Sequence record: NC_135730.1
DNA length: 64,000 bases
DNA from: a phage
Direction: 5' to 3' (one strand)
The notes beneath the pieces were generated by a model that ran no database searches, was not told the DNA's origin, and worked only from the letters and a program-made list of their open reading frames with translations. Position 1 is the first letter of the stretch. The number at the start of each line of letters is the position of its first letter. The position numbers and the translations under genes are program-made. Positions 1,113 through 62,653 of the stretch are shown one piece after another.

Positions 1113-1538
1113 ATGATCTATGAAATGCCAAAACTGATTCGTGACGATGCCCAAAACGCTCACACCATTATTATGGGCAAACGCATGGATATTATTTGTC
1201 ATAAAGATTTCTGGAAAGGAAGTTACTTCACAGAGTATTTTGGTAAACTGGACAATGGTCTGCTGATCCAGTTCTACACCGATGCGGAAAACAACATTCA
1301 CTGGGAGTTCGAAACTGAAGATATCCATAAACTTTTCACCTTCCTCGGTATTAAGGTTGAGGCCAAGTTTGAAGAAGGTGAGTGCGACGATTGTGGATTC
1401 TATGAGGTAACAGATTTCTATCTTCCAAGTGGTGAGAACCTTTACTATGAAAGCCACTTCGGCAACTCCAATATGCCACAGTGTTGGACTGAGTTTTTTG
1501 AAATTGCGGAAGAGGAGCTGGCATACCGTGATTATTGA
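1113..1538 (+). CDS. hypothetical protein
   Basis: 141-aa track ORF with GGAGAA RBS. Confidence 0.6.
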   Translation: MIYEMPKLIRDDAQNAHTIIMGKRMDIICHKDFWKGSYFTEYFGKLDNGLLIQFYTDAENNIHWEFETEDIHKLFTFLGIKVEAKFEEGECDDCGFYEVTDFYLPSGENLYYESHFGNSNMPQCWTEFFEIAEEELAYRDY

Positions 1539-1986
1539 TACTGTAGGTGGAGATCTAATCTCCATTTTCAAGAAAGGGTCAGGCCACATGATCCACGGTT
1601 GTAACTGCTTTCACACAATGGGTGCAGGTATAGCGAAAGATATTGCCCGTGAGTTCCCTCAAGCACTGGCAGCCGACAAAGAAACTGCTTATGGTAATCT
1701 AGACAAGCTGGGTATGTTTTCTTGTTGGGAGCATTTTGCCAAGAACAGGGTCGTATATGGAATCAACCTGTATACCCAGTTCTACCCAGGGCCCAATGCT
1801 GAATACTTCTCAATCATGAAAGGTTTTGAGCGAGTCAACGAGGTATTCAAAGGTGTGTCATTGCCGTTCTACATTCCTAAAATTGGATGCGGTATTGGCG
1901 GTCTAAAGTGGGAACATGTAGAAGATGTAATTAATCTTGCAACCACAGATATTGATGTGGTTGTAGTAGAGTACAAAAAGTGTTGA
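1528..1986 (+). CDS. macro domain protein (TARG1/OARD1-like ADP-ribose hydrolase fold)
   Basis: GTG at 1528 overlapping upstream stop; motif HGCNCFHTMGAGIA resembles the TARG1/DarG-type macrodomain core; N-terminal GGDL. Confidence 0.6.
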   Translation: MIIDTVGGDLISIFKKGSGHMIHGCNCFHTMGAGIAKDIAREFPQALAADKETAYGNLDKLGMFSCWEHFAKNRVVYGINLYTQFYPGPNAEYFSIMKGFERVNEVFKGVSLPFYIPKIGCGIGGLKWEHVEDVINLATTDIDVVVVEYKKC

Positions 1987-2237
1987 CGACCATCTTCTGA
2001 GGTGATATAGTCTCCACAACAACTAAGAGAGGAGAGCACTGTGGAGACTAGAATCTTAATTCTTGCTGTGGTAGATACAACCGAAGGAGCTATATTCGAA
2101 TCTGCAGGAGGGTATTTCTACCTACCATACGGAAAAAGAACTTCCGAGCCAAGTAAAGATTCAATCCTCAAAGTGTTCCCGTGTGCTTTCTGGCTGGAGA
2201 TTTTGGTATAAGATTGCAGAGGATTTGGGAGAGAATT

Positions 2238-34210: not shown

Positions 34211-35206
34211 TCAGCAACCACAACTTCCGTAGTGCTTAACCCGTTCTATAACTTCCGCTTGCTTACCTTTATTGTAAGGACGGGAGTTTGGACTAGACAG
34301 GTACCCGGATACACGTCTGATCACACTGATCGTTCCCTCTTCATGGTTTCCACACTCTGGGCATACGAATCCCTTAGCTGTTGCACTGAACTCACCAGAG
34401 AAACCACACTTAAGACATTTATCCACAGGCTGGTTGATACCAAAATACATAATGTGTTTATATCCGAAATCAACAAGAGCTTCCAAAGCATCTAAGTTGT
34501 TTTTCAGATTTGGTGTCTCTACGTATCCGATGTTGCCACCAGAGGAGATCATAGCAAAACCTTCCTCATACTCCCACTTATCAAAAGGAGAGCTATTGAT
34601 CCATACTGGCTGATGGAAACTGTTGGTGAGATATTCATGCTCGTGCTTCAACACTTCAGGATATTCACGATCCAGACAGGTTGCAGCTTTATAGCATAGA
34701 CTCTCAGAAGGGGTGCCGTACAAGCTAAATGCTAGTCCACTTTCCTTCTTATATCGCTCACAAGCATCTTTCATGTGCTGAAGGATTCCAAGAGCTAAAG
34801 CCTTGTCACCCTCTCTGCCCAAAATCTGACAGGTTTCATACACACCAATATACCCAATACTGATGGAAGCGTACCCGTCATAGAAGAGTTTATCAATACT
34901 CTCTTCAGGATCCAGGCGAGCAAGAGCGCCTTCACACCACATGATGGGGTTCTGCCCTGCCTTTGTTCCTTTTAGACGGTTAACCCTTACAAGGTGAGCC
35001 TCGTATGCAAGATCTAAGTATTCGTCAAGAACTGCAAAGAAATCAACACCTTCCGTCTTAGCTTTTGCCGCAATCATTGGCAAGTTAAGGCTAACAACAC
35101 CCAAGTTGAATCTGCCAAGGTATTTCTCCTCGCCTGTTACAGGGTCGCTATATTTCGATAAGAAACTTCTACACATTATGTTCAGGGTGGTTCGCAAGTC
35201 CACCCC
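34211..35206 (-). CDS. nrdD: anaerobic ribonucleoside-triphosphate reductase NrdD, exon 2 (C-terminal part; 5' boundary approximate)
   Basis: glycyl-radical region RVSGYL and C-terminal Zn-ribbon CPECG...CGC; frame open upstream of the first track Met. Confidence 0.75.
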   Translation of the reverse strand, partial: GVDLRTTLNIMCRSFLSKYSDPVTGEEKYLGRFNLGVVSLNLPMIAAKAKTEGVDFFAVLDEYLDLAYEAHLVRVNRLKGTKAGQNPIMWCEGALARLDPEESIDKLFYDGYASISIGYIGVYETCQILGREGDKALALGILQHMKDACERYKKESGLAFSLYGTPSESLCYKAATCLDREYPEVLKHEHEYLTNSFHQPVWINSSPFDKWEYEEGFAMISSGGNIGYVETPNLKNNLDALEALVDFGYKHIMYFGINQPVDKCLKCGFSGEFSATAKGFVCPECGNHEEGTISVIRRVSGYLSSPNSRPYNKGKQAEVIERVKHYGSCGC

Positions 35207-35935
35207 CGCACCTTTACGTGCTGCTGCATGTTCCCATGCAGATCAGACTATATCTTCACACTTAGTGTGTCTACCATTTCGAGTGTCATCGGCTTACACC
35301 CTACACCGCTACATTCATCACGGTTAGTCGTTAGGCATTTCGTAACAGAACTCGTAATCATAGTTATTAGGCGCACCACGTTTCAGGATAGCAGATATTC
35401 TTTTTCTATCCACTCCTAAAACATCAGCACAACATCTCAGACTTTTAAAGTGGAAAACCTCACCAGTTAATTTGTTGGTGGCTTTCACACCGTGGCATCT
35501 TGTGTAAAAAGCATAACAGTTGTTGTTGTATCCTTCTTGCGTATTGTCTGGGCAAGCTCCCCACTCAAGGTTGTATACACTGTTATCTTTCCTGTTGTCC
35601 CCTTTGTGCTTAACATAGGGTAAATTGTCTGGATTTGGTAAGAACGCTTCAGCAACAAGTCTGTGAACCCTTAGGCAAACAGTCTTTTTGTTCTTGCGTA
35701 TCCTAACAAGACGGTAACCTGTGTTTATCTCTTCCCACGAATGAATAATTCTTTCATTTTCGTAGCGGGTGCAATAAACATTGCCCATCTCGTCAATTTC
35801 ATAACCTTCAAAATCACGAATTTGTTTTCTCATTTCAGGACTCCTCTTGGTCAGGAGTTCTGTTACGTTTAGCACGGGATTGTCCGTTCTGGAGTTTCCC
35901 CGTTTAGATAGATTTTACATGAGCAGTTATAGTTT
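35207..35935 (-). mobile_element. group I intron in nrdD (boundaries approximate)
   Basis: core elements on minus strand: P-like cuaAACGGGGAAAcucc, Q-like AAUCCCGUG, R-like AACGACUAA, exact S AAGAUAUAGUC; exon ends GGGU. Confidence 0.65.
35324..35875 (-). CDS. HNH homing endonuclease (intron-encoded)
   Basis: HRLVAEAF...VKHKGDNRKDNSVYNLEW HNH motif; lies between the two NrdD halves. Confidence 0.7.
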   Translation of the reverse strand: MLNVTELLTKRSPEMRKQIRDFEGYEIDEMGNVYCTRYENERIIHSWEEINTGYRLVRIRKNKKTVCLRVHRLVAEAFLPNPDNLPYVKHKGDNRKDNSVYNLEWGACPDNTQEGYNNNCYAFYTRCHGVKATNKLTGEVFHFKSLRCCADVLGVDRKRISAILKRGAPNNYDYEFCYEMPND

Positions 35936-37096
35936 ACCCATGCTCGTTACTTTGCCATCTGTCGAGCCTGTCACTTTACGATTTAGTGGAACAGAAACAA
36001 AGTCAGGATAAATCCGCTCTGCAGAGCATTCCAGAGCTAATCGTTTCAAATCATAGTTAGGATCTCCAGGGTTCATGTTGACACCCTCTTCTAGGAAGAA
36101 CAGCACTTTAGGGAACACAGGTGTGATACGTTCTTCACCAAGACCCATTTTGTGGACTTTCAAGTAATTTTTGGTAATCATTCTACCAAAGACCGAGGTA
36201 TCCAGACCTAAACTTAATGTGATGAATGGGGTTTGCCCGTTGACAGAAGTTAACGTATTGATTTGATAGAGTAAAGTCTGCATGCTGTCAAATACGTCTT
36301 TATCTGTCATCTGCATTGCAACAGTCTCAGCATCTGGCAACCAATGTTCCTGGCAAAATTTAAGGTTCTTCTCATAAGTCGCCTCAGCATACTGTGCCAG
36401 ATAATGATCAATATGGCTCATAGTCTGACCCCCATATTGAGCACTAGCTACCGCACTAGAGATTTGGCTAAGGATTGTTGTTGCAACCCCTATTGACTTC
36501 GGCTTACTGACATGGGCGTTACCAATGTTGAATCCGTTTTCCAACATATCTGGATAATTTACCAAACAACAGTTTGTTAACGGACTGATCAAGTAGTCAA
36601 GATCATGCACATGGATGAAGCCTTTATTGTGCTCTTCTGAGACACGGTCTGGCAGGATCTGTGTTGATGCAAGGTGTTTGCTAAGGATGCCTGCAAGCAG
36701 GTCACGATGAGTGTGTACATGATTGGTAGGCTTATTTGCGTTTTCTTTTGTAAATTCATCACAAGTTCGATCCAAGAAGCCACTAATATCTGCAAGCAGT
36801 TTTCCACCTGCCTCTCTGTTATTATCTCTTGTCTGTCTATACTGGATGTATTCTCTGGCTGCACATTTTAAACCCATATCCATAAGAGCATCTTCAACAA
36901 GGATATGGATATTTTTTACAGAGATCGTGCACTGGTCGGTTGGTAGATTGTTAGCAACAACTTCATTAACCGCACAAGCGATCCGGTAAGCTTCTTCTTC
37001 AGTATGTCCAGACTCAAGTAAGGCGGACTCTGCCGCCTTGATCACCTTAATTCCGTTATAGAACTCTTCTCTACCGTCCCGTTTTACAACTTTCAC
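35936..37096 (-). CDS. nrdD: NrdD, exon 1 (N-terminal part; track ORF reads through 3 codons to stop at 35927)
   Basis: N-terminal ATP-cone-like MKVVKRDGREEFYNGIKV; ends where intron begins. Confidence 0.75.
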
Positions 37097-59994: not shown

Positions 59995-60069
59995 GCCCTG
60001 TTAGCTTAGTGGATAAAGCAGCGGCCTTCTAAGCCGTTGACACTGGTTCGAGTCCAGTACGGGGTGCCA
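59995..60069 (+). tRNA. tRNA-Arg (anticodon UCU)
   Basis: manual cloverleaf; anticodon loop CTTCTAA; T-loop GGTTCGAGTCC; CCA present. Confidence 0.7.
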
Positions 60070-60073
60070 AATT

Positions 60074-60160
60074 GGGGAGTTATCCCGTAGAGGTAGCGGT
60101 GTAGACTGTAAATCTATTGTCATTGCGACTCGGGTGGTTCGACTCCACCACTCCCCACCA
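60074..60160 (+). tRNA. tRNA-Tyr (anticodon GUA), type II
   Basis: acceptor GGGGAGT/ACTCCCC; loop CTGTAAA; long variable arm; T-loop TTCGACT. Confidence 0.7.
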
Positions 60161-60274
60161 AATTTATATTTTTAGATGCATAAATAATACAGATAATGGC
60201 ATTGATATTTATCGTCGTTTATACTAGTCACTAACTGCTCGAAAATCAGTGTCATTATCAGTATAATTTATAAA

Positions 60275-60365
60275 GGAGGGTAGGGAGCAATGGTGCTCAA
60301 GCGGTCTTGAAAACCGTCCCGTTGAGGATGACTCGATGATGGTTCGATTCCATTACTCTCCGCCA
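60275..60365 (+). tRNA. tRNA-Ser (anticodon UGA), type II
   Basis: anticodon arm CGGTCTTGAAAACCG matches E. coli tRNA-Ser as recalled; long variable arm. Confidence 0.75.
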
Positions 60366-60463
60366 CATTGTTGACCTTGTAATTAAGCGAAAGCCGGAAG
60401 CAGAACCGGATTATCAAATGTTACAGTCGTCATCGCCGACTAGCAACATGGTCAACATACTGA

Positions 60464-60562
60464 GCTAGGTAAGCCCTTTGGCAAGGGCGAGGATTTTTAA
60501 TCCTGAAAATAGACGAGGTAGTCGTTGAATACATAGGTGGTTCGATTCCATCGCCTAGCACC
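60464..60562 (+). tRNA. atypical type-II-length tRNA-like gene, anticodon ambiguous (UUU or UAA)
   Basis: good acceptor, D and T arms; anticodon stem only 4 bp; about 29-nt variable region. Confidence 0.4.
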
Positions 60563-60567
60563 TTTTT

Positions 60568-60643
60568 GCTGATGTAGCACAATCGGTAGTGCAATTGATT
60601 TGTAATCAATAGGTTGTAGGTTCAAGTCCTGCCATCAGCACCA
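60568..60643 (+). tRNA. tRNA-Thr (anticodon UGU)
   Basis: all four stems pair cleanly; loop TTTGTAA. Confidence 0.8.
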
Positions 60644-60644
60644 A

Positions 60645-60719
60645 GGCCCTGTAGCTGGAAGGTTCAAGCAAGCGACTCATAATCGCCAGACGGTGGTTCA
60701 ATTCCACCCAGGGCCACCA
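60645..60719 (+). tRNA. tRNA with CAU anticodon (Met or lysidine-Ile)
   Basis: acceptor GGCCCTG/CAGGGCC; loop CTCATAA; T-stem GGTGG/CCACC. Confidence 0.7.
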
Positions 60720-60730
60720 AATAGTAAATA

Positions 60731-60807
60731 CTCCGCGTAGCTCAGCTTGGTAGAGCGCCTGATTTGGGATCAGGAGGTCGAGTGTTCGAATCACTCCGTG
60801 GAGACCA
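60731..60807 (+). tRNA. tRNA-Pro (anticodon UGG)
   Basis: C1:G72 first pair typical of bacterial tRNA-Pro; loop TTTGGGA; clean cloverleaf. Confidence 0.8.
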
Positions 60808-61627: not shown

Positions 61628-61911
61628 GAGTTGCTGCACTGTTTATTGTGTGCTTTTTATTATGTGGGTGTGCAACCAGCGTTGAGAGAGAATACAAGAT
61701 TGACCCTCCAGATGTAGGAAGGTTGATTGTTAAACCCCCGGAAGGTGCCATGAAACCACCTGCTAAAGCTATGCCTTTGAAGAAAGGTGCTCCAGATGCA
61801 GTAAATTCTGGCATTATGAGGGATAATAATTTGTCTTGTAGCAATGATAGAGCTAAATTGATCATTTTGCAAGACTATATTAGAACACTGTTTCCAAAGG
61901 AGAGAGGTTAA
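61624..61911 (+). CDS. o-spanin (Rz1-like lipoprotein)
   Basis: signal plus lipobox FLLCGCATS; Pro-rich mature region. Confidence 0.6.
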   Translation: MRVAALFIVCFLLCGCATSVEREYKIDPPDVGRLIVKPPEGAMKPPAKAMPLKKGAPDAVNSGIMRDNNLSCSNDRAKLIILQDYIRTLFPKERG

Positions 61912-62336
61912 TGTCTAAGATTTACGGACCGTGTTCTGAAAAGCAGAAGATGATCCTCGAAAACGATGCAGATATTTTGGTAATCGGCGGTGCCGCAGGG
62001 TCTGGCAAGTCGTTCCTCTTGCAGTTGATGCCGCTTAAAATTATTGATGACCCCCACAGCTCTGTGGTTATGTTCCGAAGAACAACCCCACAGTTGGAAG
62101 GTGAGGGTGGGCTATGGCCTAAAGCAGTAGCTATTTATAGTGATCTGCCTGAAAACATTAAGCCAAAGTTCAGAGAGAAGGATCATAAGTTCATTTTCCC
62201 ACGGTTTGATCCGAGCACTGGCAAGTGGGATAGAAGCAAAAAGGGAGCTGTTGTAAAATACTGCCACATGGAGTATGTCCAAGATAAGCTTAACCATCAA
62301 GGTCTTGAGTACACCATGGTTTGCTTCGATGAGGGT
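61911..62336 (+). CDS. terminase large subunit, exon 1 (ATPase domain)
   Basis: Walker A GGAAGSGKS, Walker B MVCFDE; ends at intron 5' splice site. Confidence 0.8.
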
Positions 62337-62653
62337 TAATTTGTAGCTCTCGTAAAACCTCCCTAATTGCGGGGAAATCTTTACTATTAATACCACCAAC
62401 CTGTCATGGTAACATGATAGAGGCTTCGAAGAGAGATCGAAGGTATGGTAACAGTGTGTTAATTTAGATAATCCGCAGCGAAGCATCCGAGAGGATGAAC
62501 GTTCAACGACTAGTCGAAAGACGTAGAATCAAGCGATTCGAAACGGGAGGGTAAGCGGTTGTTGTCGCTTATAAGATATAGTCTGGTCTGCATGGAGACA
62601 TGCAGCTGCCTGAAAAATGGCGGGGCAAGACTAGCGACCTTGCCCGAACATAG
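62337..62653 (+). mobile_element. ORF-less group I intron in terminase large subunit gene (3' boundary +/- 3 nt)
   Basis: all four core elements in order: P AAUUGCGGGGAAA (about 62364), Q AAUCCGCAGC (about 62470), R GUUCAACGACUAG (about 62501), S AAGAUAUAGUCU (about 62573). Confidence 0.75.

Follow-up and report, generated by a model that had tools for sequence, protein, structure and literature searches.

Mobile group I introns carrying homing endonucleases have been textbook knowledge in phage nucleotide-metabolism genes since phage T4, and the T4 td and nrdD (sunY) introns are the closest described relatives of the element considered here. I-HmuI, an HNH nicking endonuclease, is also encoded inside a phage group I intron, that of the SPO1 DNA polymerase gene. 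According to a survey of phage ribonucleotide reductases, nrdD is the most often split gene of this kind in phages, with T4 and others as cited examples (PMC3653736), and in the related Certrevirus CB7, HNH-containing introns in the nrdA, nrdB, terL and polymerase genes have been shown to splice (PMC7344957). In the rV5 genome paper, introns are reported only in the terminase gene, and NrdD is described without mention of an intron (PMC3606486). Here, a 64,000-nucleotide (nt) stretch of phage DNA (sequence record NC_135730.1; the window, with positions counted from its first letter) was analysed, in which the nrdD gene of a Vequintavirus is in all likelihood split by a mobile group I intron of the T4 td/sunY type (subgroup IA) with an I-HmuI-like HNH gene, a reading to which we give a probability of about 0.88. 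An initial annotation had already proposed that a group I intron with an HNH endonuclease gene splits nrdD, and this central claim is upheld by the restored reading frame, the fold with its covariation, an Rfam-passing homologue in phage PD06, the match of the open reading frame (ORF) to I-HmuI and to an HNH family of the PHROG database, and a presence/absence polymorphism with a linked exon tract. No description of this intron, at this site or in this phage group, was found in the literature.

The genome belongs to the Vequintavirus group (rV5/FV3-like E. coli myoviruses), the region being 95-98.5% identical by megablast to phita32, SYGMH1, HMD-6 and others. Three consecutive ORFs lie on the minus strand, with 389 (37096..35927), 183 (35875..35324) and 330 (35203..34211) amino acids (aa). 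The first contains an ATP-cone (residues 1-91) and positions 1-263 of the Pfam NRDD profile, and the third contains positions 263-562 together with the Gly_radical domain. This clean split at position 263 confirms that the N- and C-terminal halves of NrdD are separated, with the HNH ORF between them. The exact boundaries were set with the uninterrupted nrdD of the sister phage Pr121LW as the reference. In the BLAST alignment, exon 1 is matched up to 35936 and the match resumes at 35138, 35 bases per side being too diverged for BLAST. The parts of the interrupted gene, as read here, are as follows.

37096..35936, minus strand: nrdD exon 1, 387 codons, with the ATP-cone and the N-terminal half of the NrdD barrel
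35935..35174, minus strand: group I intron, subgroup IA type, 762 nt, with boundaries from the intron-less Pr121LW allele
35324..35833, minus strand: putative HNH homing endonuclease gene (I-HmuI-like) in the P6a loop, 169 aa plus stop from the ATG at 35833, or 183 aa from a GTG
35173..34211, minus strand: nrdD exon 2, 320 codons plus stop, starting with UGU for the finger-loop Cys of the MGC motif and containing the glycyl-radical domain

Exon 1 ends with ...AGCAUGGGU at 35936, its last codons being AGC AUG GGU (Ser-Met-Gly), and thus has the GGGU ending that had been claimed for it. The intron begins with AAACUAUAA... and ends with ...CUGAACAUAAUG, and exon 2 begins at 35173 (UGU, Cys) directly after the terminal G of ...ACAUAAUG. 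When 37096..35936 and 35173..34211 are joined in silico, a 2,124-nt ORF results, and the 707-aa NrdD that it encodes is 99.0% identical to, and colinear with, the Pr121LW protein across VTSMG-CRSFLSKY (here and below, the hyphen in such strings marks the insertion point). As is characteristic of a group I intron, the element therefore has a terminal G (G35174, before UGU) and leaves the host reading frame restored after excision. The distance of about 730 nt given in the initial annotation has to be revised to the full intron length, since the apparent start of the second-half ORF, a GTG at 35203, lies inside the intron in helix P9.2, with the 3' splice site 30 nt further downstream. At the other end, an in-frame UAA at 35929..35927 lies in the P1 loop.

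The insertion separates the Gly codon of the finger-loop motif Met-Gly-Cys from the Cys codon that follows, and lies directly before the codon for the catalytic cysteine. From the T4 coordinates obtained by tblastn, the Cys after the insertion site corresponds to residue 290 of T4 NrdD, which we take to be the thiyl-radical cysteine at the finger-loop tip. That the first Cys of exon 2 is the catalytic one follows from this position and this assumption, together with the critical cysteine, and the Met in the same loop, that are described for the finger loop of T4 NrdD (PMC4493059).

The intron RNA can be folded into a complete group I structure, the segments of which are given below.

35919..35941, minus strand: P1, in which the exon strand AUGGGU (35941..35936) pairs with GCUCAU (35924..35919), the internal guide sequence; the pair at the 5' splice site is a U.G wobble
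35857..35912, minus strand: 5' half of the core, comprising P3 5' UCUAUC, J3/4, P4 ACGGG/CCCGU, P5 UCC/GGA, P6 GC and P6a 5' CGUAACAGAAC
35325..35351, minus strand: 3' side of P6a and P6, J6/7 and P7 5', comprising P6a 3' GUUCUGUUACG, P6 3' GC, J6/7 CUAAC and P7 5' GACUA (the R element)
35281..35324, minus strand: P7.1 ACCG/CGGU and P7.2 GGGUGU/ACACUC, with compensatory changes in both helices
35246..35275, minus strand: P3 3' GGUAGA, P8 CACAC-UAA-GUGUG, J8/7 AAGAUA and P7 3' UAGUC (the S element)
35174..35241, minus strand: P9 CUGCAUG/CAUGCAG, P9.1 GCAC/GUGC, P9.2 GGGUGG/CCACCC, the 3' tail UGAACAUAAUG and the terminal G
Core helix pairs formed between these segments: P3 UCUAUC/GGUAGA, P6 GC/GC, P7 GACUA/UAGUC and P8 CACAC/GUGUG

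A per-sequence script check found only canonical pairs in all 13 helices (P1 and P3-P9.2). In P1, U35936 pairs with a G as in group I introns, and the helix was also predicted de novo by RNAalifold. P6a (CGUAACAGAAC/GUUCUGUUACG, 11 base pairs) closes the loop that holds the ORF. The extra helices P7.1 and P7.2 lie between P7 and the 3' strand of P3, and because of their presence the intron is assigned to the subgroup IA type, as in the T4 introns. The exact S element reported initially, AAGAUAUAGUC, is found at 35256..35246, and this 11-mer occurs twice in the window against 0.03 occurrences expected, the other copy being in a second group I intron. The R-like element is also there, as AACGACUA(A) at 35332..35324, although the 8-mer AACGACUA carries no significance by itself (4 matches, 1.25 expected).

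At the sequence level, the P1-P6 part of the core is 78% and the P7-P9 part 79% identical to the T4 sunY intron by BLAST, and the S region is 91% identical to the T4 nrdB intron. The P3-P4 stretch is 85% identical to the T4 td intron over 47 nt, in line with the P- and Q-like elements that had been recognized as resembling td. Moreover, P7, J8/7, J6/7 and the 3' tail CUGAACAUAAUG do not differ in sequence from their counterparts in the T4 td intron.

A search with the 3' core identified two further introns at the same codon boundary, (S/Y)MG-CRS, in Justusliebigvirus PD06 and in Vibrio phage F102, neither of which is described as an intron in its GenBank record. The PD06 intron lies at the same insertion point, between ...AGCAUGGGU and UGUAGAAGU..., is 294 nt long and ORF-less, is 88% identical to the window intron in the 3' core, and reaches 70.4 bits with the Rfam model RF00028, whose gathering threshold is 50 bits. 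Since it retains the last ~12 codons of the HNH ORF, the PD06 copy is a deletion derivative. The F102 intron, sited between ...YMG and CRSLL..., contains an HNH ORF and is ~77% identical in the 3' core, and it differs from the window intron in its much longer P8 and in the start of exon 2.

Covariation was evaluated in these three same-site introns with their P6a loops removed. RNAalifold predicted P1, P3, P4, P5, P6, P6a, P7.1, P7.2, P9 and P9.2 de novo, and 18 of the 73 predicted pairs keep their pairing through two-sided changes. In a formal count of the full structure on the RNAalifold alignment, including the P7 pseudoknot, 96.6% of the cells were paired, against 34-44% in controls in which the partners were slid by 1-3 columns. 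Double-compensatory pairs numbered 19, against 0-4 in the slid controls and a mean of 6.1 in 500 shuffles, and none of the 500 shuffles equalled the observed values on any measure. P7 is invariant in the three-intron alignment and is thus neutral as covariation evidence. The intron therefore has the group I core P3-P8, with the P3/P7 pseudoknot and the P, Q, R and S elements, kept by covariation. A five-sequence MAFFT alignment that added T4 sunY and td was dropped for the pair counts because P6a, P7.1, P7.2 and P8 were misaligned.

The distribution of the intron among relatives points to mobility. The region is matched by 302 phage records, of which 17 reach a query coverage of 80% or more, as intron carriers should; ten records among the matches listed, 96.8-98.0% identical, cover only 72-73%, that is, the two exons without the intron. 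The polymorphism is accompanied by a sharply bounded difference in the adjoining exon.

35139..35173, minus strand: recoded exon-2 tract, in which 15 of 35 nt differ from the intron-less alleles, mostly synonymously

Divergence from the intron-less allele is 1 in 45 bases just upstream of the intron and ~2% in the rest of the gene. When the first 70 bases of exon 2 were searched against the database, the result was bimodal, with 22 records at 95% identity or more, 92 at 80-90% and none between. In the cross-checked records, the intron is carried by all high-identity sequences (9/9) and lacking in all low-identity ones (4/4). The window and PD06 have the first 14 bases of exon 2 in common, UGUAGAAGUUUCUU. 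Presence and absence at one precise site in close relatives, together with a linked flanking exon tract, is the pattern expected of homing with co-conversion, suggesting from the sequences compared that the intron has spread in this way. The recoding of exon 2 would let an intron-carrying genome escape its own I-HmuI-type nuclease, and the one-sided, sharply bounded tract provides a testable prediction of where the endonuclease binds. In addition, three evolutionary stages are represented in public genomes, namely the intron with its endonuclease gene, the intron with the gene deleted, and the empty site.

The product of the HNH ORF aligns end to end with I-HmuI (residues 3-166 with residues 4-172 of PDB 1u3e, E=1.8e-7) and matches PHROG 59, annotated as HNH endonuclease, with E=2.8e-32. 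The motif His and both Asn are conserved relative to 1u3e (VKHKGDNRKDNSVYNLEW...PDN). A search of NCBIfam with the protein gave nothing useful. Relatives annotate the same 510-nt coding sequence (CDS), and the protein is 100% identical in phita32, 97% in SYGMH1 and 50% in F102. Compared with the SYGMH1 copy, the ORF has 12.5 synonymous and 5.5 non-synonymous differences (pN/pS = 0.11), which shows that purifying selection acts on the HNH protein. The final nine codons of the ORF and its stop (…EFCYEMPND, then stop) double as P6a 3', P6 3', J6/7 and P7 5', and because the ORF end doubles as strands of the RNA core, EMPND and the stop are conserved in F102. Upstream of the ORF, its Shine-Dalgarno sequence is part of a hairpin.

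35840..35858, minus strand: hairpin ACUCCU-GACCAAG-AGGAGU, holding the Shine-Dalgarno GAGGAG 8 nt before the HNH ATG

The minimum free energy of this hairpin is -12.4 kcal/mol (z = -2.6 relative to shuffles). The ribosome-binding sites of T4 intron ORFs are sequestered, and by analogy the hairpin may regulate translation of the HNH ORF.

Taken together, a mechanism of the following kind can be proposed. The nrdD gene would be transcribed as a precursor, on which the ribosome would stop at the UAA three codons into the intron. The RNA would fold so that P1 pairs the exon end AUGGGU with the guide GCUCAU, free guanosine would attack after U35936, and the 3'-OH of exon 1 would attack after the terminal G (35174), joining GGU to UGU in a messenger RNA (mRNA) for the 707-aa NrdD. 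The P6a loop would encode the 169-aa I-HmuI-like HNH endonuclease, with the ribosome-binding site held in the hairpin. In a mixed infection, the enzyme would nick or cut intron-less nrdD, most likely in exon 2 just downstream of the insertion site, and recombinational repair would copy the intron and ~35 nt of recoded exon 2 into the cut allele.

Several results weigh against a functional mobile intron and its enzyme. At the gathering threshold, Rfam did not call the nrdD intron, and its only group I match in the whole window was at 62327..62605. The covariance-model search that the initial annotation had suggested as a check was thus only partly favourable, because RF00028 did match the 3' (P7'-P9) part of the nrdD intron in E-value mode (E=5.5e-7), but with 35.3 bits, formally below the curated threshold of 50. 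This low score is explained by the 510-nt ORF in the P6a loop, which splits the core. The covariation test was made on three sequences, with a structure derived from one of them. No convincing P10 was found that would pair the beginning of exon 2 with bases lying 5' to the guide, the sole option being a weak 4-base-pair helix (AGUU/AACU) that is present in intron-less alleles too. A search for an internal sigma-70-type promoter for the HNH ORF was likewise negative, with 10 found against 8.7 in shuffles. Finally, both Pfam matches of the HNH protein are below their cut-offs (HNH_3, 19.8 against 24.8 bits; the I-HmuI NUMOD-like domain, 20 against 27 bits), and the residue before the catalytic His, Asp in I-HmuI, is Lys here and Cys in F102 (VDHKDGN in I-HmuI, VKHKGDN here). 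In I-HmuI, this Asp is a metal ligand, and given its replacement, the sequence does not guarantee that the HNH protein is catalytically competent.

The last two points also favour the alternative that survives best, namely that the RNA splices but the HNH protein is no longer a homing enzyme, being dead, a helper of RNA folding or a factor that interferes with competing phages, in which case the present distribution would result from past homing or ordinary recombination. This alternative gains further from the ORF-less derivatives, by which the endonuclease gene can evidently be lost, and from a report of an intron endonuclease acting in phage-phage competition (PMC11620839). We nevertheless consider it improbable, because the pN/pS value indicates a protein under selection, the motif His and two Asn are conserved relative to I-HmuI, and a polymorphism so sharp among genomes 96-98% identical, with its linked exon tract, looks like the product of active or recent homing.

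Less probable still is that the insertion stays unspliced, with NrdD made as two assembling polypeptides and the group I-like sequence being a decayed remnant. A precedent for a split but functional ribonucleotide reductase is the NrdA of Aeromonas phage Aeh1, split by mobE and reported to assemble from two polypeptides (cited in PMC7344957 and PMC3653736), and the GenBank records of relatives give two separate nrdD CDSs, the second from an AUG formed by the last three intron bases. However, no Shine-Dalgarno sequence precedes this AUG at 35176, which is a feature of the intron, since T4 td has an identical ...CAUAAUG tail. Moreover, the core helices are all intact and kept by compensatory changes across three phage lineages, the catalytic-core sequences are identical to those of the self-splicing T4 introns, and the split point is implausible for a non-covalent break in the protein. 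A chance arrangement or artefact, in which a free-standing HNH gene landed between gene fragments and the intron-like motifs are coincidental, could appeal to the non-significant R 8-mer but is refuted by the S 11-mer, enriched and in group I contexts both times, the Rfam E-value, the agreement of the structure beyond its controls, the exact frame restoration and the PD06 homologue.

Within the reading of a mobile group I intron, a different route of arrival can also be considered. The T4-site sunY intron has an identical guide sequence, with which just 4 of the 2,124 positions of spliced nrdD are compatible, one of these being the real site. The intron might have come by guide-directed ectopic transposition and not by homing, the site being chosen by P1 pairing, either by reverse splicing or because splicing was selected for once an illegitimate insertion had occurred, and the HNH gene, in place of a GIY-YIG gene, might have been captured separately in P6a. 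The enzyme would recognize exon 2 only, and the recoded tract would protect the carriers. We regard this combined proposal as doubtful. If true, recognition confined to exon 2 would mean that insertion of the intron leaves the target intact and that the 35-nt recoded tract provides the self-protection.

Further observations concern the nrdD gene and its surroundings. In the window, the NrdG gene lies downstream of nrdD, and the glutaredoxin, NrdB and NrdA genes lie upstream. The annotated nrdD of some relatives starts 71 codons further downstream (locus position 714, not 501). This later start would remove most of the ATP-cone, which Pfam places at residues 1-91 as counted from the GTG at 37096, a start codon that overlaps the stop codon of glutaredoxin. 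In phita32, nrdD has a second intron-like insert (locus 1365..2212) at SVNG-QTPF. This insert lies ~10 codons away from the T4 site, and its HNH-like ORF of 177 aa has 28% identity to the HNH protein of the window. In the phages 241Ecol014PP, navn, A135 and A147, the matching region is 257 nt longer than in the window, suggesting an additional intron without an ORF. Given the phita32 insert and these longer relatives, a minimum of three intron sites exist in the nrdD genes of this phage group. About two dozen GenBank entries labelled Campylobacter phage (MG0656xx, with Campylobacter jejuni as host) share 97-98% identity with this region of an E. coli Vequintavirus, and their host assignment looks doubtful.

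A second, ORF-less group I intron of 317 nt (62337..62653, plus strand) splits the terminase large-subunit gene of the window. It scores 84.1 bits with RF00028 at 62327..62605 and shares 78% identity with the nrdD intron in its 3' part. Exon 1 of the terminase gene (61911..62336) ends with GAGGGU, and exon 2, from 62654 onwards, is in frame with an ORF that runs to 63778. This agrees with the rV5 genome paper, which reports introns in terminase (PMC3606486). A cluster of five transfer RNA (tRNA) genes lies just before the terminase region, at 59995..60804 on the plus strand (Rfam matches at 59995, 60076, 60568, 60645 and 60731), of which the match at 60076 is marginal (29.9 bits, threshold 29).

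The kind of element described here is already known, and the present case is a clean example of it outside the T-even phages. Its insertion between the Gly and catalytic-Cys codons agrees with the general rule by which elements of this kind are directed to the most constrained codons of essential genes. In practice, the GenBank records of relatives divide nrdD into two or three CDSs and list an HNH homing endonuclease besides, and the separate nrdD CDSs with the seemingly stray HNH gene should be joined as one spliced CDS.

Among known systems, the T4 nrdD (sunY) intron shares the host gene and has the closest matching RNA core found. The guide sequence GCUCAU, P7 and P9 are identical, P7.1 and P7.2 are present in both, and the 5' exon ends, AUGAGU in T4 and AUGGGU here, both pair with GCUCAU. 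However, the T4 intron lies between residues equivalent to 273-278 here (tblastn), whereas the window intron follows residue 387, 113 codons further downstream, where T4 nrdD is uninterrupted (AUGGGU-UGC; ...PMGCRSFL... continuous). T4 nrdD encodes the GIY-YIG enzyme I-TevII 3' of the core, after P9, whereas the HNH ORF lies in the P6a loop here, and the host phages belong to the Straboviridae (T4) and the Vequintavirinae. The T-even arrangement invoked by the initial annotation therefore holds as an analogy, but in a Vequintavirus and with a different site, endonuclease family and ORF position, and on these three differences orthology with the T4 nrdD (sunY)/I-TevII element was rejected. As a separate observation, the T4-site nrdD intron of Tequatrovirus IME537 (locus 1420..1660) is a mosaic in which the P4-P6 region is td-like and P7.1 matches the window intron exactly (81% identity over 123 nt), as could result if intron cores recombine.

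The T4 td intron resembles the window intron in layout, with its I-TevI ORF looped out of P6a and running into the P6 3' strand and J6/7, as here, an exon that ends with GGGU, and an insertion point that is conserved and functionally critical in the host enzyme. It differs in its host gene, thymidylate synthase, in having a P2 helix, none being evident in the window intron, in the family of I-TevI, a GIY-YIG and not an HNH enzyme, and in the ORF frame through the shared core (AAU GCC UAA in td, GAA AUG CCU AAC GAC UAA here). For the protein, I-HmuI is the nearest counterpart, with 174 aa against 169 here and an alignment spanning the N-terminal strands, the HNH motif and the C-terminal helix-turn-helix-like region, although the similarity is remote, the target gene is different, and the Asp before the catalytic His of I-HmuI is replaced by Lys.

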